Source of the DNA: a virus
Length of the DNA stretch: 64,000 nucleotides
Strand: one strand, 5' to 3'
UHGV virus genome: UHGV-0291501
The notes beneath the pieces were generated by a model, which was not told where the DNA came from, ran no database searches, and worked only from the letters and a program-made list of their open reading frames with translations. Positions 14,492 through 37,665 of the stretch are shown here, piece after piece (within the stretch, counting starts at the first letter, position 1; each line of letters begins with the position of its first letter). A program made the translations under genes and the position numbers.

Positions 14492-16636
14492 TTACATAGA
14501 AACTCTGTCACGAATCTCAGCGATTTTTGCATCATTCATTCGTGATTCACCTTTAATCTTAGTCCATCCAAGATAACCACACACCCTGTTAATCACAGAG
14601 ATATCATGTGAGTGACAAACTTCACACTCTTCAACATCTGATTTTGGTCTGTTACCACAATGTTCACAGATTGCTAAGTCAAAGTTAAGTCCCTGATAGA
14701 AACCTTTCAACATCCCTCTGGTAATACAGCTTTTAAGTGCTGGTAAGTTTTCTGGGTTAGCTACCCTGACATACTGGATTCTGCCACCTCTACAGATATG
14801 GAAGAATGGCTCTTCTAAGTCCTGCTTCTCAAATGGTGAGATGTCTGCTGCAACATTCATATGGAAACTGTTTGTAAAGTATTCCTTGTCAGAAACACCT
14901 TTGATAACACCAAACATTTCTCTGAACTGTTTTAGCTGAGTTCCACAAAGTGATTCTGCTGGAGTACCATAGACAGCATATAAGAAGCCATCTTCATTTT
15001 TAAACTCTTCAGTTTTCATGTTAATGTATGCCAGAACATCGTATGCAAAACTATAGCTCCCAACTTCATGCAGCCGTTTACCTTCAGCAAGAACAGATAA
15101 CTCATCAAGCGCAGTAACCCCAAAAGAAGCTGTGAAAGACTTCACGATATCCCAACCAACCTTGTCAGTAGGTTTCTTGGTCCCTTTGTACAGACCACCT
15201 TGTGTGAATGCAAGAGGGTTAGAGCTTGCTGGCATATTAGCAATCATTTCGTAGCGTTTCTTGTGGAAGCTGCGAATCATCTCTAGGTACTTGTCAAGCT
15301 CTTTCCAGAAATCTAAACCATTCTCTTTAGAATACTGGTAAATCATTGGTAAGTTCAAAGACACAGCACCAATGTTAGCACGACCAACGTAGAACTCTTC
15401 TCCATTCTCGTTAAGATATGGGGATAAGAAAGCTCTGCAACCCATCGGTGAAATTACCTTGCCAGAACGCTCAAAAGCCTCTGCTACAGCACCATGACCA
15501 GATACGCTTAAGAAATCTGGATACATTGCTTTAGAGCAACACTCAATAGCTTTACTGTACAGTTGGCCTTGACAGATATTCTCATCGTGTCTCTTCTGGT
15601 CATGAATATAAACCAGTTTAGGGAATACAACAGGCTTCTTACTCTTACCTTGTCCATTCATGCGAACATCAAGAATGGTGTTTGCAATCATGTATTGTAG
15701 CCGGTTGTCTTCATTAGACATGTCTGAGTCAAGTAAACCAAATGTTAAAGTTGTGAATGCGAAATCACCACGGCTACAAGGTACAGTGTTCAGTTTCATT
15801 TCAAGTGACTGAAAACCTTGAGTTAATTCAATTTGTAACTGCTCCATTACATAATTGTGGTAATGCTCTTTAGGAATACCATAAGATGATGCTTTCTCAG
15901 CATGATAGCGTAGAGACTTCTTAGCATACGGTACAAGTACCTTATCAATCTCTGCTAAAGTAAAACCACCAAATTGCTGTGCAGTTGCTGAAAGTACTAC
16001 GTCACCAATAACCTGCAACGCTGACAGTACAGATTTAGGTTCACAGTACTCAATGCCGGACATTTCAAAGCCACCTTTTAGTACTTTACCAATGTCAAAC
16101 AGGCAACAGTTAATACCACCAAAAATCAGGTCTCTTAAATCATGGATATAGATAAAGCCTTTCTCAATGGCTTCAAGTTCCTCTGGTGTTAGATGATACT
16201 GTTTAAAGATTTCTTTAGTCAGGTAACCACGGATAATTGAACCTTTCGTAGAAATTAAACTGCTGTCAAAGTTAGCATTTTCACGGTCACCTAAGAAGAG
16301 TGTATCTTTAGTCTTCTGGTAGAGTTCATCCCAATTTTGAGCAACCTCTTTACGGTAATTTCTATATGTTGAGTAAGACTCATAAATCTCGTGATTGACT
16401 TCTGCCAAAGCACCCTCAACAATACTGTGAATATCATTTACCGAAATTAGCAAATTATTCTGCTTAGTGGACTTTACCAGAAGCCTCATAAATGCTGACT
16501 CAAGAGCTTGAGTAACATCTGGTGGAAGCTCTTTATAACCAACTCTGTTAGCTGACTTTGTGACTGCTGCTAAAACTTTTTTGATATCAGGTTCTTCAAG
16601 TGAGCCATTCTTTTTAATAATCTGTACTTTGTTCAT
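14492..16636 (-). CDS. nrdD: Anaerobic ribonucleoside-triphosphate reductase (class III)
   Basis: 714 aa; C-terminal zinc ribbon CEHCGN ... CEVCHSHD and glycyl-radical motif RVCGYLG. Confidence 0.85.
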   Translation of the reverse strand: MNKVQIIKKNGSLEEPDIKKVLAAVTKSANRVGYKELPPDVTQALESAFMRLLVKSTKQNNLLISVNDIHSIVEGALAEVNHEIYESYSTYRNYRKEVAQNWDELYQKTKDTLFLGDRENANFDSSLISTKGSIIRGYLTKEIFKQYHLTPEELEAIEKGFIYIHDLRDLIFGGINCCLFDIGKVLKGGFEMSGIEYCEPKSVLSALQVIGDVVLSATAQQFGGFTLAEIDKVLVPYAKKSLRYHAEKASSYGIPKEHYHNYVMEQLQIELTQGFQSLEMKLNTVPCSRGDFAFTTLTFGLLDSDMSNEDNRLQYMIANTILDVRMNGQGKSKKPVVFPKLVYIHDQKRHDENICQGQLYSKAIECCSKAMYPDFLSVSGHGAVAEAFERSGKVISPMGCRAFLSPYLNENGEEFYVGRANIGAVSLNLPMIYQYSKENGLDFWKELDKYLEMIRSFHKKRYEMIANMPASSNPLAFTQGGLYKGTKKPTDKVGWDIVKSFTASFGVTALDELSVLAEGKRLHEVGSYSFAYDVLAYINMKTEEFKNEDGFLYAVYGTPAESLCGTQLKQFREMFGVIKGVSDKEYFTNSFHMNVAADISPFEKQDLEEPFFHICRGGRIQYVRVANPENLPALKSCITRGMLKGFYQGLNFDLAICEHCGNRPKSDVEECEVCHSHDISVINRVCGYLGWTKIKGESRMNDAKIAEIRDRVSM

Positions 16637-16653
16637 TATTGCCCCTTTACATG

Positions 16654-16676
16654 CTAAAAAGGTCTCCGAAGAGACC
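16654..16676 (-). terminator. Rho-independent terminator
   Basis: Hairpin ggtctc-cgaa-gagacc with minus-strand U5 tract. Confidence 0.6.
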
Positions 16677-16684
16677 CTTTCATT

Positions 16685-16891
16685 TTAAATCTTTTTAGAA
16701 AACTTAGAAACGAGTTTTCTCAGTTTTTCAGTGATGCCTAGCTGTATCTCTAATATTTCAAAGATAACCCATAGTAACATGGCCCCAAACAATGAACCTT
16801 GTTCAAAATCAGTAAATAGGTTAACAATCAGCATACCAATCACAATAGCTGGTGCATCGACAACCAAACCTTCCCAAATGCGTTTAAGCAT
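16685..16891 (-). CDS. Small membrane protein
   Basis: 68 aa with two hydrophobic helices; holin-like topology but no lysis context. Confidence 0.4.
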   Translation of the reverse strand: MLKRIWEGLVVDAPAIVIGMLIVNLFTDFEQGSLFGAMLLWVIFEILEIQLGITEKLRKLVSKFSKKI

Positions 16892-21450: not shown

Positions 21451-22177
21451 CCCCTTTTAACCAGCACTTCAGGTTATTAGCATCATAATTCAGTTTCGGG
21501 TATGAGGTTACATGGAACTGCTCACCATCATAGTAGACAATATCTGCAATCCATAGTCCATTCTCTTTACAGAAGTCTTTATCTGCTTTAGAGGTAATTG
21601 GATTAACTTCTACAAAACCATCTACACCCAAATCCTTTAAGCTACATACAATACCTTTGCAGATAACGCATGTGTCAGATACTACCACAAAAAGTTCTTG
21701 GCTTTCAAGTTCTACAATGTATTCACCAAGCTGAACTTTAGGGAGATTAGATTGCTTCATAACCTTCCCATCGGCTGCGCGAACAATTGCATACCACTCT
21801 TTACCATCAACTACTGACATTCTGATGATACACTCTTGACCAGTACGCTTCTCAATATCTGCAAGACGTTTTAAAGCTTCTTCATAGTCGTCTGTGTACT
21901 TCAGGTCATTATTATGGCAAACAGCTTTCATAGCACCGTTATGGTCATGTTGTGACAGGTAAATCAAACCGTCAAGAACATATTGCAAATCTGCCTGAGC
22001 ATCCAGTGTCTCAATGGGGTCTTTCTCTTCAATTGCTTTTACAAGCTCTTTTGCTTCTTCAAGCATACACAGAGATTGAGATTTCAAAGATTCCCAATAC
22101 TCATTACTGTAAGGTTGTTTTTGAGTGTTTCCACAACGAAGATTCCAGTTTTTTACTGATTCTCTTGAGTTAAACAT
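21422..22177 (-). CDS. Protein with N-terminal MazG-like nucleotide pyrophosphohydrolase domain
   Basis: LEEAKELVKAIEEKDPIETLDAQADLQYVLDGL resembles the MazG/HisE all-alpha signature; C-terminal half with CVIC unrecognised. Confidence 0.4.
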   Translation of the reverse strand: MFNSRESVKNWNLRCGNTQKQPYSNEYWESLKSQSLCMLEEAKELVKAIEEKDPIETLDAQADLQYVLDGLIYLSQHDHNGAMKAVCHNNDLKYTDDYEEALKRLADIEKRTGQECIIRMSVVDGKEWYAIVRAADGKVMKQSNLPKVQLGEYIVELESQELFVVVSDTCVICKGIVCSLKDLGVDGFVEVNPITSKADKDFCKENGLWIADIVYYDGEQFHVTSYPKLNYDANNLKCWLKGVGYNGFTEH

Positions 22178-22416
22178 TTTGGCTCCTTAAAATATCTGTT
22201 AACCTTTAGCTCTCGTGTTTCGATATATTCTAGATGCTCACGTAGCTCTTGACGTTTAAGCATTAGGTGTTGCATTTGAGATTCAACAGCTTCAACTTCT
22301 TTAATTATTGACTCTCTAGCATTTGCAAGAATGCGCTCAAGTTCTTCAATCTTGCTGTCAACTTTTGCTACATGACTCACAGCTTTGCTTTTGTTAAACA
22401 TTTTATTCTCTCTCAA
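22153..22416 (-). CDS. Hypothetical coiled-coil protein
   Basis: 87 aa, charged heptad-like sequence. Confidence 0.4.
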   Translation of the reverse strand: MRENKMFNKSKAVSHVAKVDSKIEELERILANARESIIKEVEAVESQMQHLMLKRQELREHLEYIETRELKVNRYFKEPKCLTQENQ

Positions 22417-22422
22417 TAGTTA

Positions 22423-22920
22423 TCAAGCATAATTTGCTTTCATTACCTTATGGATTCTTTTTTCAGCATCTTCATAAGTTTCTTTAGTAATAAACTTAAT
22501 TGCTGCAATATTGGCATTGTAGAAGAGCCTGAGCTTCGAGTCAATCCTTTTTGTCATTACATCGAATTTATGTTGAAGGTTTGCTTCACCATAGACTAGA
22601 CCACCTTTTGTGTAGTAGGTTTGAATAATGTAAAAATCAAAAGATTCTTTTCCAAAGCTTTCAATATCTTTTTTAATATACTCAGAAGAGGTTTCGTAAG
22701 TCATCCAATCACTCTCCTTAGTGACTACCTTCTTCCGAGTCTTCCCAGCAACTTTTCTTTTTGTCACACTGTTAAGCTGTTTCTTTCCGATATAATATTG
22801 TCCAGTCTTCTTACAGTGCACTAAATAGACAAAGCCAAAATGTTTAGTGGGGTCAACTTCCCCACATAAAGATACCCAATGACCGTAGGTAGGGCAATTG
22901 CCAAATCCTTTAATCTTCAT
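22423..22920 (-). CDS. GIY-YIG homing endonuclease (free-standing)
   Basis: Motif FVYLVHCKKTGQYYIGKK near N-terminus; adjacent to an HNH endonuclease gene. Confidence 0.6.
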   Translation of the reverse strand: MKIKGFGNCPTYGHWVSLCGEVDPTKHFGFVYLVHCKKTGQYYIGKKQLNSVTKRKVAGKTRKKVVTKESDWMTYETSSEYIKKDIESFGKESFDFYIIQTYYTKGGLVYGEANLQHKFDVMTKRIDSKLRLFYNANIAAIKFITKETYEDAEKRIHKVMKANYA

Positions 22921-23441
22921 TCATAAGCTTCTCCGTGATTTGAAAACTCTTTATGTAGTTCTTCTCTTTTCTTTTTGACAACTGATTCAGCCTCAGTGAT
23001 AGAGTCAAATAAACCTAGATGGTAGCATACTTTATTATGCTTGACTTGTGCAGCCCATCTACCTCTTTGCTTGTGGTAATATACACCCTTCACACCAGAC
23101 TTATTATCTTTTCTTTTGACTGTATTGCAGTTGTTGTCTGACCTGCTACACTCTCTCAAATTGTCGAACCAGTTGTCGTGCCTGATACCATTCTTGTGGT
23201 CAACAAATTTTGGGAGGTAGCCTTTCATATACAAGAATGCCAGTCTGTGTGCTGCATATCTTTTTCCGAAGAGTTTTATATAGATATAACCACTATGGTG
23301 TTTAAGACCTGCTACTGAGCCAGCTTTGGCCTTACCTCTTCTACCAACTAACCAAGTAAAGACCCCTGTTTCGGGGTCATAGTGCAGGTATTCTTTAAGA
23401 GTTTGTTGAGTTAACATTTGGTGTCCACCCATACTTATCAA
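22917..23441 (-). CDS. HNH homing endonuclease with AP2-type DNA-binding domain
   Basis: HNH core AHRLAFLYMKGYLPKFVDHKNGIRHDNWFDNLR; AP2-like SGVKGVYYHKQRGRWAAQV. Confidence 0.65.
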   Translation of the reverse strand: MISMGGHQMLTQQTLKEYLHYDPETGVFTWLVGRRGKAKAGSVAGLKHHSGYIYIKLFGKRYAAHRLAFLYMKGYLPKFVDHKNGIRHDNWFDNLRECSRSDNNCNTVKRKDNKSGVKGVYYHKQRGRWAAQVKHNKVCYHLGLFDSITEAESVVKKKREELHKEFSNHGEAYE

Positions 23442-24441
23442 AAGTGAAATCGTCTTTCTTGTTTCTTTCCTGATAAGCTAAGAAAAAGTGTTGCTGCATT
23501 AACTCTAAAGGTGTTCTGGTAATTGTTTGACCATCCCATGATACATAAGTGTATGACTCTTTCTTAGCATAAAGTTCATAGATAGCATCAAGACACTCTT
23601 TATAAGTATTTTTACCTTCAAGGGCTTTCATTACAGTAGCCTTACCAACACCCTTTAAACCAAAATAATTATCAGCATTGTCACCAGCCACAGCTTGATA
23701 ACAAAGGAATTTAAAACCTACACCAACTGTCTTCTTAGCTTTTGGTGTTGATTTTATTGGGCAATCCCAAATTTCACCTACGTTGTTGTCAGCAATGAAA
23801 ATCAAAGGCGACTTTTCATAGGTCATATCAATGCAGTAAGTCCCTTCAGCTTGGCGAAGGTCTTTATCAATACTCATCAAGGCAGCCTTTTTACCCATCT
23901 TTTCAGCTTTAGCAATAACGATAGAATCGGCTTCAAATCCATCAAGAATTAGTTTGAACTCTGGTCTTGACAGAAGATACTCACGACAAGCAACTAAGTG
24001 TGTTGGTGTGACAGCATCTTTACGGTTACCTTGATATTGGTGCTCAAGACCTTTAATGTCTTTATGTTTATGCACACCTTTCTCTGTTAAATAACCTACC
24101 CAAGTTCTCTCTTTACCAACAATCTTAAGCCATTCCTGAAGCACCTGTTGAGTAGCCATGATAGCTTCTTTTTCACTCTTAGCTTCTTTCCAAGTCTGTC
24201 TTTCCCATTCATCTTCATCAAATGTCAGCCCAAGCTCTTCCACAAGGATTCTCTGGTCTGCTAACCATCTTGCAGCATCTTTCGCATTATCAAATGGCTC
24301 AGATTCTTCTGCTGTGAGTTTATTGATGTATTTATATTTTGCTTTCTCAACTACACAAGCACCTTTATAGGCAATACTGTCAGAGTCAATAAAAACATGT
24401 GTAACTGAATCGGGAAGTTTTGTTAATGTGTACTCCTCCAT
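23395..24441 (-). CDS. 5-prime-3-prime exonuclease / flap endonuclease (RNase H-like)
   Basis: PIN-like N-terminus (FIDSDSIAYKG) and helix-hairpin-helix motif GDNADNYFGLKGVGKATVMKAL. Confidence 0.7.
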   Translation of the reverse strand: MEEYTLTKLPDSVTHVFIDSDSIAYKGACVVEKAKYKYINKLTAEESEPFDNAKDAARWLADQRILVEELGLTFDEDEWERQTWKEAKSEKEAIMATQQVLQEWLKIVGKERTWVGYLTEKGVHKHKDIKGLEHQYQGNRKDAVTPTHLVACREYLLSRPEFKLILDGFEADSIVIAKAEKMGKKAALMSIDKDLRQAEGTYCIDMTYEKSPLIFIADNNVGEIWDCPIKSTPKAKKTVGVGFKFLCYQAVAGDNADNYFGLKGVGKATVMKALEGKNTYKECLDAIYELYAKKESYTYVSWDGQTITRTPLELMQQHFFLAYQERNKKDDFTFDKYGWTPNVNSTNS

Positions 24442-30309: not shown

Positions 30310-33009
30310 ATGGAAAACGTAGATTTTAAAAACTTACATTTAGTTGGTGATACAGAAACTGATGGTTTACTCCTTGAGTTCACTAAAGTTCACGTAATGG
30401 CTTTCGCAGACTACAAATCTGACGACGAAGAACCACCAGTATGGGTCTTTACTGATGAACCTATTCTCGGTCACAAGTACACTAAGTACATCAAGGGTGG
30501 ATTACGTGAAGGTATTGAGTTTGCGTTGAAGGCAAAACGACTTTGTATCCATAATGGTCTCGGTTATGACTGGTGGGTTTTCAATCACATTGCACCTGAT
30601 TTGTGGAACTTTGATAATCCAAAGTGTAAGCCGTGGAGTAATTTCTTTCAGGATTCTCTTATTCAGTCTCGTGTTCAATGGATGGATAGACCAACTCCAA
30701 AAGGCTATAAAGGTGCTCATGGCTTGGCAGCATGGGGTGCTCGTGTTGGTGTTCGTAAACCAGAGATTGAACATTGGGGTGTGTGGAATGCAGAAATCTT
30801 CACTCGTGTTGTAGAAGATATCCGTATTAACGCCAAAACTAAACGGGCACTTGATAACGAGTATCTCAAGCTTAAGAAGTGTGGCATAGACACTTATGAA
30901 ACCTACATGCGAGCTAAAGAGACATCTTTCTGGATGAGCCAGCAAGCTATCAATGGTTGGAAAGCTGATAAAGAGCTTATGGAGTTCCATGTAAAGGAAC
31001 TTGACAAGCTGACTAATGAGCTTGCTTCAGAGGTTGAACCACATCTACCTCCAACTATTAAGACCAAAGGTAAAGTAACTGGTGAAGAGTTTGCAAAGGC
31101 TTGGAATGAGTATGTTGAAACATTTGGTCATGCAGATGGGTTGAAGAGAATTACCAAGTACCCTAAGACAAAGTACCGTCAGCAGGTACGTAACGGTGAG
31201 ATGCAGACATATGAAATCAAGCCATTTGGTAAGCCAACTACAAAGATTTTTAACATTGAAAAGAGAAATTGCTATACACCAACCAACTCTGTAACTGGTG
31301 AAGAGTACAAGGAAGGCTTTGTAGCAATGAAGGATGCTCGTGCAATTTGCAATGAGTTGAATGCAAAGATTGGTAAGAAATGCAAAGACTGGAAGCCAGT
31401 AAAAACAGTCAAAACTGTGAAGTACTACAACAGTCATGTTGTTAACCACTTTGAACTTGAGTCAAGTCGCTATACAGGTTTGATTGATGCACCATATACA
31501 CCAATTGAGTTCGAAGTTTCTCGTATGACTCAGGTAGCAGTTGTTAAAGACTACTTGAAATCAGTTGGTTGGATTCCAGATGACTGGAACTACAAGAAAG
31601 ACTCAGATGGTCGCCCTGTCAAAGTTTGTCGTTTCAAAGACAACAAAAAGATGATTACAAAGCATCCTAAGTGGCAGGAGATGGTTGAACGGTGTGGCTT
31701 GAGTTATGTTGAACATGAAGGTGTCCAGTACATTGAGCATAACTGGTCTGTGAAGAAGTACACAGATTTGCTTGAGCCTTGCTTAATCCGTACTTCACCA
31801 AAACTTACTGAATCATCTTATGATACGATTGAAGGCGAGCTTGGACAGAAGATTGCTAAATACTATACTTTGATGCACCGACGTAGAACTATTGAGAACT
31901 CAAAGGATGATGAAAAAGGTTGGTTGAACCAGATTCGTCCTGATGGTCGCCTTAGTGCTGGTGCAATGGTGTTTGGTACTTCAACTGGACGTATGACACA
32001 ATATGGTATTGTAAACGTACCGTCTGGTGCTGCTGTCTATGGGGAACCAATGAGGGCAGTGTGGATTTGTGAAGAAGGTACTAACGTCGTCTCTGTAGAC
32101 ATGAACTCAGCCCAGCTAGTTCTTCTTTGTAACTTTATGGGTGACAAAGACTTCACCAAAGCGGTGACGCAAGGTAAAGAAGAGATTGAGTTTATTCGTC
32201 AAGAAGATGGACGCTATTACTGCAAACATTTTGATGAGTACCTCAATCCAGAGATTGATAAGTACCTTCGCTATGACTCTGAGAATGACCTTTACGTTGT
32301 CTATTCAGGGACTGATGCACACACACTGAACAGTATTTACTTTAGCTTGAATGATGAGCAGGATATCTTGACTTGTCGAGCTACTCAGGATGAGAATCTT
32401 CTTCATGAGATTAGTAAAGGTCGTAAGAAAGCTAAGAATGGTATCTATGCACTGCTGTTCGGTGCAGGGGATGAGAAGTTTGCTAAGACGATTAAAGCTG
32501 CAACTACTCAGGAAGGTGCACTGACTAAACAAACTTACTTTATTCGTTTGCCTAAAATTAAGAAGCTACTAGATGACTTGGAAGCTGACTACAAAGCAAC
32601 TAAAAAGGCACTTGAAGAGGTGTTTGGTAAGACTGCTGCAATCTCTAAAGGGGGTTTTGTAAAGGTTGCTGGAGCTTGGTTGTGGTGTAAATCTCCACAC
32701 AAACTGTTGAACTACCTTTTGATGGGTTCAGAGGCCCAGATTCAAAATGAGGCAATTAACCTTGCTTGTCGTCGCATGATTGACGAAGGGTTGATGAAGC
32801 TAAATGGGCGTAAACCAGCTATAGGTGCTCGCTTATTGTGCGCATATCACGATGAGACTAGCTGGGAATGTCCAGAGAGTATGACGGCAGAAGTAAAAGC
32901 AGTTACTGATTGGTATTACGGGCAAGCTTCTAAGAACTTAGGTCTTAAGAAAGAAACACTTGTAACTGGTACAGGTAAGGTTGGAAAGAGTTGGCTTGAG
33001 GTTCACTGA
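30310..33009 (+). CDS. DNA polymerase, family A, with 3-prime-5-prime exonuclease domain
   Basis: Exo I motif LVGDTETDGL; motif B RKKAKNGIYALLFGAG; motif C YHDE. Start placed at ATG 30310 (MENVDF) with gagggag RBS. Confidence 0.85.
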   Translation: MENVDFKNLHLVGDTETDGLLLEFTKVHVMAFADYKSDDEEPPVWVFTDEPILGHKYTKYIKGGLREGIEFALKAKRLCIHNGLGYDWWVFNHIAPDLWNFDNPKCKPWSNFFQDSLIQSRVQWMDRPTPKGYKGAHGLAAWGARVGVRKPEIEHWGVWNAEIFTRVVEDIRINAKTKRALDNEYLKLKKCGIDTYETYMRAKETSFWMSQQAINGWKADKELMEFHVKELDKLTNELASEVEPHLPPTIKTKGKVTGEEFAKAWNEYVETFGHADGLKRITKYPKTKYRQQVRNGEMQTYEIKPFGKPTTKIFNIEKRNCYTPTNSVTGEEYKEGFVAMKDARAICNELNAKIGKKCKDWKPVKTVKTVKYYNSHVVNHFELESSRYTGLIDAPYTPIEFEVSRMTQVAVVKDYLKSVGWIPDDWNYKKDSDGRPVKVCRFKDNKKMITKHPKWQEMVERCGLSYVEHEGVQYIEHNWSVKKYTDLLEPCLIRTSPKLTESSYDTIEGELGQKIAKYYTLMHRRRTIENSKDDEKGWLNQIRPDGRLSAGAMVFGTSTGRMTQYGIVNVPSGAAVYGEPMRAVWICEEGTNVVSVDMNSAQLVLLCNFMGDKDFTKAVTQGKEEIEFIRQEDGRYYCKHFDEYLNPEIDKYLRYDSENDLYVVYSGTDAHTLNSIYFSLNDEQDILTCRATQDENLLHEISKGRKKAKNGIYALLFGAGDEKFAKTIKAATTQEGALTKQTYFIRLPKIKKLLDDLEADYKATKKALEEVFGKTAAISKGGFVKVAGAWLWCKSPHKLLNYLLMGSEAQIQNEAINLACRRMIDEGLMKLNGRKPAIGARLLCAYHDETSWECPESMTAEVKAVTDWYYGQASKNLGLKKETLVTGTGKVGKSWLEVH

Positions 33010-33070
33010 TTAGTATTGACAAGGTTCTCATGGAAGAGTACCTTATACTGTATCTTATATAGGAGGGCTT

Positions 33071-34102: not shown

Positions 34103-34290
34103 ACAAAGAAGATAAGCATAAAAATGCTGTACGGACTCCTGATGGAAAGGTTCAATCCTTCATCCTGACAGTTGGTGGAAAGCCGTTTCGTTGCCACTGC
34201 GGAGCAAACTGTTTTCATAAACCAGATAAAAATAACTTAGAGCTTTACGCATGTAATGCTTGCAATACTTGGTATCACTCAGAGGATTGA
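34099..34290 (+). CDS. Small zinc-ribbon protein
   Basis: 63 aa with CHCGANC ... CNACN pattern. Confidence 0.45.
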   Translation: MNKEDKHKNAVRTPDGKVQSFILTVGGKPFRCHCGANCFHKPDKNNLELYACNACNTWYHSED

Positions 34291-34292
34291 TT

Positions 34293-34817
34293 ATGATTGA
34301 CAATAGGCGCAGAAATATAATCATCAAAAACTTCCGCGAAGTGTCGCAAAATTTAAGACTAGATGATGTCAGACTTAGGAAATCTTGGTATGACATGAAG
34401 GTATTAGAATATTCTAAAAATCAGCCAATTAAGTTATCTATCTTAGAACATTGGTATACAAACTTTGCAACACCTGAAAATCATAATAAATTATACAAAA
34501 ACTATGTAGATGTTTGTAAAAAGTTTGGTGTAGCAATAGTCGACGACAGTATTGGATTGCTTTATGACCTGTACACAAGGTTCTCTGAATATGCTTTTAA
34601 TGTTCAGTTCAAGAACTACTTAAAGTATGATGATGGTTCATTAAAGTTGTACAACTATGGTTATGGAAAACTAGCCTGCAAACAAGATGATGGTTCTTTT
34701 ATAGACTTCTACACAGGGGTTTTTGTGTACTTACCTGAACAGTGTATGTCACTATCTGATTTAGCAGTCTCACAATTTGGTATCTTTATTCCAGTAAAAT
34801 CACACATGCTAAGGTAA
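34293..34817 (+). CDS. Hypothetical protein
   Basis: Start at ATG 34293 (MIDNRRRN) with gagga RBS; track start at 34260 is TTG. Confidence 0.45.
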   Translation: MIDNRRRNIIIKNFREVSQNLRLDDVRLRKSWYDMKVLEYSKNQPIKLSILEHWYTNFATPENHNKLYKNYVDVCKKFGVAIVDDSIGLLYDLYTRFSEYAFNVQFKNYLKYDDGSLKLYNYGYGKLACKQDDGSFIDFYTGVFVYLPEQCMSLSDLAVSQFGIFIPVKSHMLR

Positions 34818-34822
34818 TTTGA

Positions 34823-35923
34823 ATGACAATTCTATACAAACAAAATAAAGATGGCTCTTTTAACGTCTGGTCATGTGTCGCTGTAGGTGACAAAGTTATT
34901 ACAACCTATGGTAAAGAAAATGGCAAGATGATGTTTGAAGAGTATACAGCAGAACCTAAAAACATCGGTAAAAAGAATGAGCGTAACGCTGAACAGCAAG
35001 CTCTCTTTGAAGTTGCTGCTAAGTATAAAAAGCAAGTTGACCGTAAAGGTTATGCTTACACAAAAGAGTCTGCACAGAATACTGAGAAGGTAGGTGTACA
35101 GCTTGCTCATGATGCTGCAAAGGTTAGTCATGCAAAGTATCTGAAGTTCCCTGCTGATGCTCAACCAAAACTTGATGGTGTTCGTTGTAGAATTTCAAGA
35201 GATGCTGATTCAGTTAGCTTCACGGCTTATTCTCGTGAGAATACTGTTTACAACGTCCCAGTAGAACTAATCCCAGATTTGCTTTTGTTGCTTAAATTGC
35301 ATCCACAAGTAGAAGACTTTGATGGTGAGATTTATGCTCATGGTTGGGACTTAGAAGATATTGTGTCTATGATTAAGAATGCTGACAATCCAGACCGACA
35401 TCTACTCCAGTTCTACTGGTACGATATCTGTGACAGCACTAAGACGTGGCCTGAGCGTAGAGATATTATTGAGACTTCACCTATTGTTGAGCTTGGGGAT
35501 ACCTGTAGAGTGGTTCCTGTACAGACTATCCGTGTAAATTCTTGGGAAGAGTTTGATGAAGCCCATGATAAGTGGGTTGAAGCTAAGTTTGAAGGTGCAA
35601 TGTACCGTTCAATCTCTGAAGACTCCTTCTATGAGTGTGGTCACCGTTCATACTTCTTGATTAAGCACAAGAAGATGCACACTGAAGAGTTTAAAGTAAC
35701 TGGTGTAAAGACTGATAAACGTGGTCATGGTAAGTTCGTCGTAGAGACTCTTCCTAACGTCTTTGTAGATGTCTCATGGAAGACTACTCATGAGAAGAAA
35801 CAGTATCTTGCTGAACATCCTGAAGAGTTTATCGGGAAACCTTTAACTGTTCAGTTCCAGAAGATGACTCGTAAGGGTTCTTTACAGTTCCCTGTTGGGT
35901 TAGTTATTCGAGATTACGAATAA
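34823..35923 (+). CDS. ATP-dependent DNA ligase
   Basis: Adenylation motif I KLDGVRC; size like T7-type ligases. Confidence 0.8.
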   Translation: MTILYKQNKDGSFNVWSCVAVGDKVITTYGKENGKMMFEEYTAEPKNIGKKNERNAEQQALFEVAAKYKKQVDRKGYAYTKESAQNTEKVGVQLAHDAAKVSHAKYLKFPADAQPKLDGVRCRISRDADSVSFTAYSRENTVYNVPVELIPDLLLLLKLHPQVEDFDGEIYAHGWDLEDIVSMIKNADNPDRHLLQFYWYDICDSTKTWPERRDIIETSPIVELGDTCRVVPVQTIRVNSWEEFDEAHDKWVEAKFEGAMYRSISEDSFYECGHRSYFLIKHKKMHTEEFKVTGVKTDKRGHGKFVVETLPNVFVDVSWKTTHEKKQYLAEHPEEFIGKPLTVQFQKMTRKGSLQFPVGLVIRDYE

Positions 35924-35958: not shown

Positions 35959-36035
35959 GAGCAGCATAAACCAACGGGTACTCACCAGCATCACTTAAGA
36001 GTCTTCTAAGAGGGTTTTTAAGTAATGTGATGTTT

Positions 36036-36119
36036 GGTTTGGTGTGGTCAGGTAATGTGATGTCTGGTTTAGTGCGGTGATGTGCGGTCCGGTAAGGTCC
36101 GGTGCGGTAAAGTGCGGGT
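36036..36119 (+). repeat. Phased pentamer tract 1A: about 17 tandem (G/N)GTNN units
   Basis: ggttt ggtgt ggtca ggtaa tgtga tgtct ggttt agtgc ggtga tgtgc ggtcc ggtaa ggtcc ggtgc ggtaa agtgc gggta; strict 5-bp phase. Confidence 0.7.
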
Positions 36120-36177
36120 AGTTAGTCTCAGCTACATTAAAATGAGACTTACCTTTTTAAAAGGTCTTTAAGAGGGT
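36116..36177 (+). repeat. 62-bp hairpin module, copy 1 (identical to 37527-37588)
   Basis: gggtagttagtctcagctacattaaaatgagacttacctttttaaaaggtctttaagagggt; 7-bp stem agtctca/tgagact; 15-bp palindrome acctttttaaaaggt. Confidence 0.75.
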
Positions 36178-36186
36178 TTTTTAATG

Positions 36187-36270
36187 AGGTAGGGTAAAGT
36201 AATGTTTGGTCTGGTTTGGTAAGGCGCGGTCTGGTTTGGTAAGGTAAGGTTCGGTATGGTATGGGTGGAT
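36187..36270 (+). repeat. Phased pentamer tract 1B: about 17 GGTNN units
   Basis: ggtag ggtaa agtaa tgttt ggtct ggttt ggtaa ggcgc ggtct ggttt ggtaa ggtaa ggttc ggtat ggtat gggtg. Confidence 0.7.
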
Positions 36271-36297
36271 GGTAGTAGCCACGTTAAAAATCTACCA
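36270..36297 (+). other. Stem-loop (6-bp stem, 16-nt A-rich loop) conserved with a compensatory change in region 2
   Basis: tggtag-tagccacgttaaaaat-ctacca here versus tggcag-tagccttataaaaaat-ctgcca at 37671-37698. Confidence 0.5.
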
Positions 36298-36354
36298 AGT
36301 TTCTAAAGAGTCTTCTGTTGAGGGTTCTTTACAAACAACTTAACAATCAACTAA

Positions 36355-36960
<606 letters not shown>

Positions 36961-36962
36961 TT

Positions 36963-37403
36963 ATGAATACAAAAGCATTAGCAGCAAAGTTTAGTTACGG
37001 TGACACTGTATCACATTCTGAGATGGACACCTTCTTAGGTATTGTGAAGCCAACTTATCAAGGTGACATTGTTAAGTACGAAGATGAAATGAAGGCTTAT
37101 GCGCTTACACGTCTAAACCGACTTGAGAAGTTTATTGAGAAGCTTCTTAAAGAAGAGAAGATTTATCTGGTTGCTTCAATGGGTGTTGGTTATCGTGTGG
37201 TTGAACCTAAGCATCAAGCAACTATTGCAAAACGTAAAATGTCTGGTAAAATTGGTCGTGCTTTAAAGCAAGCTACTCAAGCAATTGAGAATGTGAACAC
37301 TATGGCACTTAGCCACCAAGAACGTTCACGACTAATTGAACAGCAAAACCATTTAGCTGCTATGAAAGCTAACATTAACAAGCAACGTAGAAAACCTTTC
37401 TAA
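36963..37403 (+). CDS. Hypothetical protein (cassette gene 2), helical, basic C-terminus
   Basis: 146 aa; tightly coupled to the upstream gene; followed by a terminator. Confidence 0.5.
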   Translation: MNTKALAAKFSYGDTVSHSEMDTFLGIVKPTYQGDIVKYEDEMKAYALTRLNRLEKFIEKLLKEEKIYLVASMGVGYRVVEPKHQATIAKRKMSGKIGRALKQATQAIENVNTMALSHQERSRLIEQQNHLAAMKANINKQRRKPF

Positions 37404-37414
37404 GTTGACTAGGT

Positions 37415-37437
37415 AGCCTCTTCGGAGGCTCCTTTTT
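37415..37437 (+). terminator. Rho-independent terminator
   Basis: Hairpin agcctc-ttcg-gaggct followed by CCUUUUU. Confidence 0.55.
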
Positions 37438-37462
37438 AAAAGGTCTTTAAGAGGGTCTTTTA

Positions 37463-37530
37463 ATGAGGTAGTATACGGTATGGTGGGGTAGGGTGAGGTC
37501 TGGTTTGGTAAGGTAGGGTCTGGTATGGGT
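37463..37530 (+). repeat. Phased pentamer tract 2A: about 13 GGTNN units
   Basis: ggtag tatac ggtat ggtgg ggtag ggtga ggtct ggttt ggtaa ggtag ggtct ggtat gggta. Confidence 0.7.
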
Positions 37531-37588
37531 AGTTAGTCTCAGCTACATTAAAATGAGACTTACCTTTTTAAAAGGTCTTTAAGAGGGT
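37527..37588 (+). repeat. 62-bp hairpin module, copy 2 (identical to 36116-36177)
   Basis: Same 62-bp string as copy 1, compared by eye base for base. Confidence 0.75.
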
Positions 37589-37596
37589 CTTTTAAC

Positions 37597-37665
37597 AAGG
37601 TTAGGTTAGGTCTGGTGTGGTAGGGTTAGGTGGGGTTAGGTTTGGTATAGTTTGGAAGGATGGCA
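37597..37665 (+). repeat. Phased pentamer tract 2B with telomere-like TTAGG/TTAGGG units
   Basis: ggtta ggtta ggtct ggtgt ggtag ggtta ggtgg ggtta ggttt ggtat. Confidence 0.7.

Follow-up and report, generated by a model that had tools for sequence, protein, structure and literature searches.

A putative mobile HNH-AP2 gene at the junction of the exonuclease gene and a probably fixed GIY-YIG nuclease gene in a Felix O1-like phage genome

The HNH-AP2 gene that follows the exonuclease gene of this phage is best explained as a mobile insert that homes into the overlap between the exonuclease gene and a GIY-YIG gene, the latter encoding a fixed, vertically inherited nuclease that lies outside the element. 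We put the probability of this reading at about 80%. The sequence analyzed, called the window below, is the whole 64,000-nt stretch of UHGV virus genome UHGV-0291501, which is a Felixounavirus (Felix O1-like) genome. In comparisons with its relatives, the HNH-AP2 gene has the profile of a selfish mobile insertion and is carried by about a third of them. Both genes are already known in Felix O1 and dozens of relatives, and the outcome is known biology together with a useful annotation correction.

The 3.1-kb region searched matched 259 phage records, with Felixounavirus LF82P5 as the best match (97.9% over 3.1 kb) and Felix O1 at 94.9%. HNH and GIY-YIG endonuclease names already stand on both genes in many of these 259 records. 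The same two genes occupy the same position in Felix O1, as ORF106 (NP_944978.1, "HNH endonuclease") and ORF107 (NP_944980.1), with no substantive difference from the window, and annotated orthologues of both are also found in wV8, HY02, Mushroom, Andreotti, and others. The window HNH protein is 92% identical to that of Felix O1 and 99.4% identical to that of LF82P5. Six HNH homing endonuclease genes have been reported in the Felix O1 genome (PMC3185647). Many GenBank names for the GIY-YIG gene read "GIY-YIG homing endonuclease," and the RefSeq name of ORF107 is "NAD synthetase," as is that of PHROG phrog_447, T4-like cyanophages included. This last label (phrog_447, ORF107) has no Pfam support and looks like a propagated misannotation, since Pfam assigns a SegE-like GIY-YIG nuclease domain. 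NCBIfam yielded no model for either the HNH-AP2 or the GIY-YIG nuclease. Three entries under other host names, Staphylococcus phage SA1 and Campylobacter phages A132 and A126 (GU169904.1, MG065664.1, and MG065668.1), also hold the Felixounavirus locus at 95%–98% identity, which suggests that they are mislabelled or contaminated.

In the ORF list, the minus strand carries every gene between 19.5 and 28 kb of the window, and the order along transcription is a 285-aa ORF, the exonuclease gene, the HNH-AP2 gene, the GIY-YIG gene, an 87-aa coiled-coil ORF, a MazG-like gene, and nrdA (Table 1). The exonuclease gene was identified by its match to the phrog_107 exonuclease (1.2e-65), alongside the weak Pfam match to 5_3_exonuc. 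A preliminary description, made from the letters of the window, had placed two homing endonuclease genes immediately downstream of the flap endonuclease gene. Both ORFs are real and run on the minus strand exactly at 22423..22920 and 22917..23441. Their adjacency stands, but the order given for them, GIY-YIG and then HNH-AP2, is not that of transcription, in which the exonuclease gene is followed by HNH-AP2 and then by GIY-YIG. The coiled-coil ORF is a neighbor outside any mobile unit. No paralogues of the HNH-AP2 or GIY-YIG gene were found within the window. A weak tblastn match of the HNH-AP2 protein at 16632..16817 on the plus strand (E 0.023, 23% identity over 62 aa), adjoining the end of a 714-aa ORF (14492..16636), is probably due to chance.

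Table 1. Features of the exonuclease/GIY-YIG locus, given as positions in the window.
Feature	Position	Strand	Basis or remark
5'-3' exonuclease / flap endonuclease gene, 348 aa	23395..24441	-	phrog_107 and weak Pfam 5_3_exonuc
3' part of exonuclease gene, ~19% diverged from SP22 (105 mismatches)	23441..23980	-	Candidate co-converted tract
Segment absent from empty-site relatives, 499 nt	22926..23424	-	Comparison with empty junctions
HNH_3 + AP2 free-standing homing endonuclease gene, allele A, 166 aa	22917..23417	-	ORF, Pfam, allele alignment
GIY-YIG nuclease gene, 165 aa, catalytic domain only	22423..22920	-	ORF, Pfam, distribution, selection
Conserved 87-aa coiled-coil ORF (phrog_4442)	22153..22416	-	3' neighbor of GIY-YIG gene

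The HNH ORF can be read as 174 aa from a TTG at 23441. Its start is most likely the ATG at 23417, giving 166 aa, because the allele alignments are conserved from MLTQQ onward. This ATG lies 23 nt inside the exonuclease gene, overlapping its last 23 nt, and at the other end the HNH TGA overlaps the GIY-YIG ATG as ATGA. The protein matches Pfam HNH_3 (E 1e-12, 47.9 bits against a cutoff of 24.8) and Pfam AP2 (E 2.2e-07, 31.5 bits, slightly below the gathering cutoff of 33.3 bits), with a weak match to the plant TEM1 AP2 structure (E 0.22). The HNH catalytic motif (DH-x-N...DN...NLR...N) is intact and conserved in the three alleles described below (A, B, and C), and the SGVKGV...W.A motif of the AP2 region is kept in all of them. 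The window protein also matches phrog_99 (6e-75). Homologues occur in 2802 phage records, typically at 30%–50% identity; annotated HNH homing endonucleases of T5-like, Chi-like, and T7-like phages are 40%–50% identical to it, and these close HNH-AP2 relatives are known here as annotations, by their sequences. A weak direct match to I-HmuI (PDB 1u3e) was also found (E 0.039).

No promoter-like site was found just upstream of the HNH gene, and promoter and terminator counts were at the level of shuffled sequence, so the gene is probably expressed by read-through of the exonuclease operon. A hairpin, GACCCCGAAACAGGGGTC (23378..23361, minus strand), followed by TTTACTT, lies 17 nt past the exonuclease stop, within the HNH 5' coding region over the codons for DPETGV. 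It is conserved in all alleles, and the ~60 nt around it are near-identical in A, B, and C although the allele cores are 50%–60% identical. The terminator scan flagged this hairpin; we rejected it as a terminator in the HNH 5' region, where 81 nt fold no better than shuffles (z -0.55).

Comparison with relatives that lack the gene defined the insertion precisely. The 499-nt segment of the window replaces the 8 nt GAGCCGTG of the empty junction TGGGAGCCGTGTATGAATGAAGATTAAAGG, and the empty junction of SP22 and REP10 contains ...AATTGGGAGCCGTGTATGAATGAAGATTAAAGG... The segment boundary at 22925 was also obtained from blastn matches covering query positions 1–503. Exonuclease stop and GIY-YIG start overlap by 11 nt in empty sites, as found in Felixounavirus SP22, REP10, phiWec177, allfine, and JH2, in Mooglevirus Sf17 and Michonne, and in Suspvirus SUSP1; in Kolesnikvirus Fifi318, which is arranged alike, the overlap is 8 nt. 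The empty junction is thus near-identical in three genera, and the arrangement is conserved in four. The last eight codons and the stop of the window exonuclease gene lie in the HNH-insertion sequence, which gives the exonuclease a new 9-residue C-terminus (...WTPNVNSTNS before the stop, compared to ...WEPCMNED in empty-site relatives). The GIY-YIG gene is provided with a new Shine-Dalgarno sequence (GGAGAAG), and the last two codons and the stop of the HNH gene are taken from the target. It had been anticipated that, without the endonucleases, the exonuclease gene would be followed directly by the coiled-coil ORF; this arrangement was never seen, and in the empty-site genomes examined the GIY-YIG gene comes next.

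Alleles A, B, or C of the HNH gene are present at the site, one copy each, in 92 of 298 Ounavirinae records (~31%). This occupancy is the number of records matching a query of the three allele cores (92) over the number matching the GIY-YIG gene (298); it rests on BLAST summaries and 60-match samples from a database that includes duplicate records, and since BLAST joins pieces less than ~500 nt apart, empty sites are counted indirectly. In a blastn search with both genes, 298 records matched and 64 covered both at the nucleotide level. In most of the remaining records the match extends 5 nt beyond the GIY-YIG ATG and no further, and where annotated, the exonuclease gene abuts that point. Allele A was found in the window, LF82P5, Felix O1, and ESh22, allele B in wV8 and Moogle, and allele C in HY02, EC6, and Sf14. 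The alleles share 56%–59% protein identity, are all intact, and have the first 22 residues and the HNH motif in common. SP22, which is empty, and wV8, which carries allele B, belong to one ICTV species. All three alleles are present in both Felixounavirus and Mooglevirus, while the Kolesnikvirus and Suspvirus relatives sampled were all empty.

Copies of each allele differ by 16%–23% at the nucleotide level between Mooglevirus and Felixounavirus. For allele A (window compared to ESh22), dN/dS is 0.055 with a dS of 1.04, and for allele C (HY02 compared to EC6), dN/dS is 0.045 with a dS of 0.55; by these values the HNH gene is functional and not decaying. The cross-genus transfer of allele A is not recent, yet it is younger than the genus split as dated by neighboring genes. 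Given the 16%–23% nucleotide differences and the dS of 1.04 for allele A, transfers between the genera are old, and long-standing polymorphism could account for part of what is seen.

The flanks of the insert indicate import. Three Mooglevirus cases carry this argument, and the comparison of Sf14 (allele C) with Sf17 (empty) is the cleanest of them. These two genomes are 97%–100% identical across the locus outside the tracts that flank the insert, which take up ~90 nt at the end of the exonuclease gene and ~170 nt at the start of the GIY-YIG gene. In Moogle (allele B) and ESh22 (allele A), identity to Sf17 is 0.59–0.77 over the last 150–250 nt of the exonuclease gene, compared to 0.85–0.97 over the same stretch when each is set against a Felixounavirus carrier of the same allele. 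No such drop in identity was seen in the control pair of two empty genomes, Michonne and Sf17. These imported flanking tracts in occupied genomes bear out the earlier suggestion that the locus is a recombination hotspot.

A similar contrast was seen between the window and SP22. There are no mismatches over 21888..22925 (1,038 nt, from the GIY-YIG start downstream), followed on the exonuclease side by 105 mismatches in 540 nt and by 10 in the next 390 nt. The divergent 540 nt are 91%–100% like REP10 and 90%–98% like Felix O1, and are a candidate co-converted tract that may have arrived with the HNH gene. We considered the window as SP22 plus the HNH gene and set this description aside, as the two differ in ~21 patches over 52 kb, making up about a third of the length. 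Because the genomes are mosaic in this way, the flank contrast is possibly a coincidence, and the pair is suggestive, not decisive.

The first ~130 nt of the GIY-YIG gene (window 22790..22920) fall into two haplotypes that are ~77%–80% identical, while the rest of the gene is 92%–98% identical. One haplotype is common to the window, SP22, wV8, and REP10; the other has one extra codon and occurs in Felix O1, HY02, and EC6. The window thus pairs allele A with an SP22-like GIY-YIG gene, and Felix O1 differs from it over the first ~130 nt (76%–80% identical). These haplotypes may reflect co-conversion on the downstream side or variation of the target site.

The GIY-YIG gene has a different distribution from that of the HNH gene. 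It was found in 298 of the 298 Ounavirinae records recovered, across four genera, as a single copy directly after the exonuclease gene (apart from the HNH insert where present), with protein identities of at least 60%, and no site lacking it was found in any relative recovered. Estimates of dN/dS are 0.04–0.06 within a genus and between genera (dS ~2.4 between genera), and the same comparisons give 0.04–0.06 for the exonuclease gene (dS 1.7–1.8 between genera); the two adjoining genes are under equal constraint. In EC6 (L004 3489..3990), a single nucleotide inserted right after a run of six A residues breaks the gene into two ORFs; this is the only disrupted copy seen, unless the extra nucleotide is a sequencing error.

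The 165-aa protein matches Pfam SegE_GIY-YIG (PF19835; E 4.9e-28, 98 bits against a cutoff of 25), as well as phrog_7363 and phrog_314. Residues G29, F30, Y32, Y43, G45, K46, K47, E112, and N135 are invariant among homologues and R62 is nearly so, and the GIY, YIG, Arg62, Glu112, and Asn135 positions are kept in homologues down to 47% identity. The domain match covers residues 21–138, the 27-aa tail has no match, and no DNA-binding module (NUMOD, HTH, or zinc finger) was found in the protein. A HMMER search recovered 1399 GIY-YIG family representatives. Among the best 150 of these, 75 are at least 210 aa long and have the match at the N-terminus, and NUMOD3, I-HmuI NUMOD-like, or HTH modules were found in all 10 long representatives tested. 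Single-sequence and profile searches of PDB sequences with the GIY-YIG protein gave matches at chance level. An AF2 model built from a 13-sequence alignment has a pLDDT of 70, with residues 106–147 below 50, and its top Foldseek match is the I-TevI catalytic domain at a non-significant E of ~0.8, so that the predicted structure lends weak support to the GIY-YIG fold. In T4-like cyanophages, distant homologues of the GIY-YIG protein (30%–37%) occur as small ORFs named "NAD synthetase." Linkage of the flap endonuclease and GIY-YIG genes outside Ounavirinae was looked for and discarded, with the distant homologues in cyanophages S-RSM4 and P-SSM4 lying in unrelated contexts.

The preliminary description treated both nucleases as mobile elements whose presence varies between collinear relatives. 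This was borne out for the HNH-AP2 gene, with its 92 of 298 records and its clean empty site. It does not extend to the GIY-YIG gene, which is universally present among the relatives recovered, has no signature of mobility, and departs on two points from what defines a mobile homing endonuclease gene. The GIY-YIG gene occurs in every relative recovered, diverges vertically, is strongly constrained, and has lost the DNA-reading region; we read it as a fixed gene that is not currently mobile and whose product is probably a domesticated nuclease.

An alternative is that both are active free-standing homing endonuclease genes and that the GIY-YIG gene is merely fixed in the subfamily. The catalytic domain does belong to a SegE-like homing endonuclease family (PF19835; phrog_7363 and phrog_314), longer relatives have the full homing endonuclease architecture, and many GenBank records name the gene accordingly. 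We nevertheless consider this reading unlikely: the gene is single-copy in every record with no empty site in any relative, it keeps step with the exonuclease gene in divergence and dN/dS across four genera, whereas a fixed selfish element should decay, and it has no DNA-binding module with which to recognize a site. The absence of such a module would also suit a pairing of the two nucleases, with each nicking one strand or with the AP2 region of the HNH protein targeting the GIY-YIG domain, and the adjoining genes and their ATGA overlap suggest translational coupling. This pairing is very improbable, as ~69% of relatives keep the GIY-YIG gene with no HNH gene at the site, and its function therefore cannot depend on the HNH protein; moreover, the GIY-YIG gene of empty sites shows the same kind of coupling with the exonuclease gene, which indicates that the overlap was inherited from the target site.

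The HNH-AP2 gene could instead be ancestral at the site and repeatedly lost, so that the empty sites are deletions. The presence of all three alleles in each of the genera Felixounavirus and Mooglevirus, with about the divergence that separates the genera, and purifying selection on the alleles (dN/dS ~0.05 within A and C) fit such a history. However, one compact empty-site architecture is found in four genera, and every one of the repeated deletions would need to be exact to the base and give back a functional exonuclease C-terminus. The Kolesnikvirus and Suspvirus relatives sampled were consistently empty, and the occupied Mooglevirus flanks indicate import, since they resemble Felixounavirus carriers rather than their own genus. 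Ancestral presence with loss is improbable. We therefore prefer insertion of a mobile HNH-AP2 gene next to a fixed GIY-YIG gene.

Under this preferred reading, the ancestral operon would have encoded the exonuclease, the GIY-YIG nuclease, the small coiled-coil protein, and the MazG-like protein, with an 11-nt stop/start overlap between the first two genes, and a 499-nt segment with the HNH-AP2 gene (allele A) would have been inserted exactly at that overlap. During mixed infection, the HNH-AP2 enzyme would nick or cut the genome of a relative lacking the gene, at the empty junction or in exonuclease sequence close to it, and repair would copy the gene and adjacent exonuclease and GIY-YIG sequence from the carrier (intronless homing with co-conversion). 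The GIY-YIG protein would descend from SegE-like homing endonucleases, with the catalytic domain alone kept and, most likely, a non-homing nuclease role. We infer where the DNA would be cleaved, how it would be repaired, and what the GIY-YIG protein would do in the cell; cleavage and repair are modeled on the free-standing homing endonuclease genes of T-even phages. More tentatively, the GIY-YIG gene may encode a domesticated homing endonuclease that is beneficial to phages across Ounavirinae and coupled translationally to the flap endonuclease gene, with its start-region overlap serving as a "safe" target invaded by three HNH-AP2 lineages; this is a conjecture that we hold with less than even confidence. 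Possible roles for the protein include action on branched replication or recombination intermediates and degradation of host or competitor DNA.

The free-standing homing endonuclease genes of T-even phages (SegF, SegG, and MobE) spread by intronless homing with co-conversion. On this subject, PMC8300805 cites the 2010 work of Edgell, Gibb, and Belfort. Like SegF, SegG, and MobE, the window HNH gene is intergenic, has neither intron nor intein, is patchy in collinear relatives, and has imported flanks. Unlike them, it combines HNH_3 with AP2, whereas theirs are GIY-YIG with NUMOD or HNH with a zinc finger; it occurs as three diverged alleles at a single site, and its cleavage activity is predicted. 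The window GIY-YIG protein has the catalytic domain and the GIY, YIG, Arg, Glu, and Asn motifs in common with SegE-like GIY-YIG proteins (PF19835), but it lacks the NUMOD or HTH region of the longer relatives (10 of 10), and it is universally rather than sporadically distributed. T4 endonuclease II (DenA), also a GIY-YIG nuclease, stands alone and has a role other than homing. Both DenA and the window protein are small GIY-YIG proteins (about 136–165 aa) that have no separate DNA-binding domain and are encoded by regular phage genes. This likeness is an analogy and a lead, not membership; the window protein has no detected sequence similarity to solved structures.

These results leave general knowledge of homing endonucleases unchanged, and their consequences are for annotation and phylogeny. 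In Felix O1-like phages, the names "GIY-YIG homing endonuclease" and "NAD synthetase" stand on a core gene, which is unfit as a mobile marker. The recombination hotspot, made up of the HNH-AP2 gene and ~100–600 nt to each side, should be masked in trees of these therapeutic and typing phages. Natural near-isogenic pairs with and without the insert (Sf14 and Sf17; the window and SP22) make homing easy to test.

Other differences between the window and SP22 were observed elsewhere in the genomes. A 537-nt window segment (34285..34822) is absent from SP22; it lies just upstream of a 366-aa ORF (34823..35923) and holds a 185-aa ORF (34260..34817). A 1.6-kb window segment (36028..37639) with ORFs of 200 aa (36358..36960) and 146 aa (36963..37403) has no SP22 counterpart. 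Conversely, where the window has nothing (32987..33016), SP22 has an annotated HNH homing endonuclease gene of ~557 nt (L017 24938..25465). This extra gene adjoins a 2.7-kb gene and is a second homing endonuclease presence/absence polymorphism between the window and SP22.
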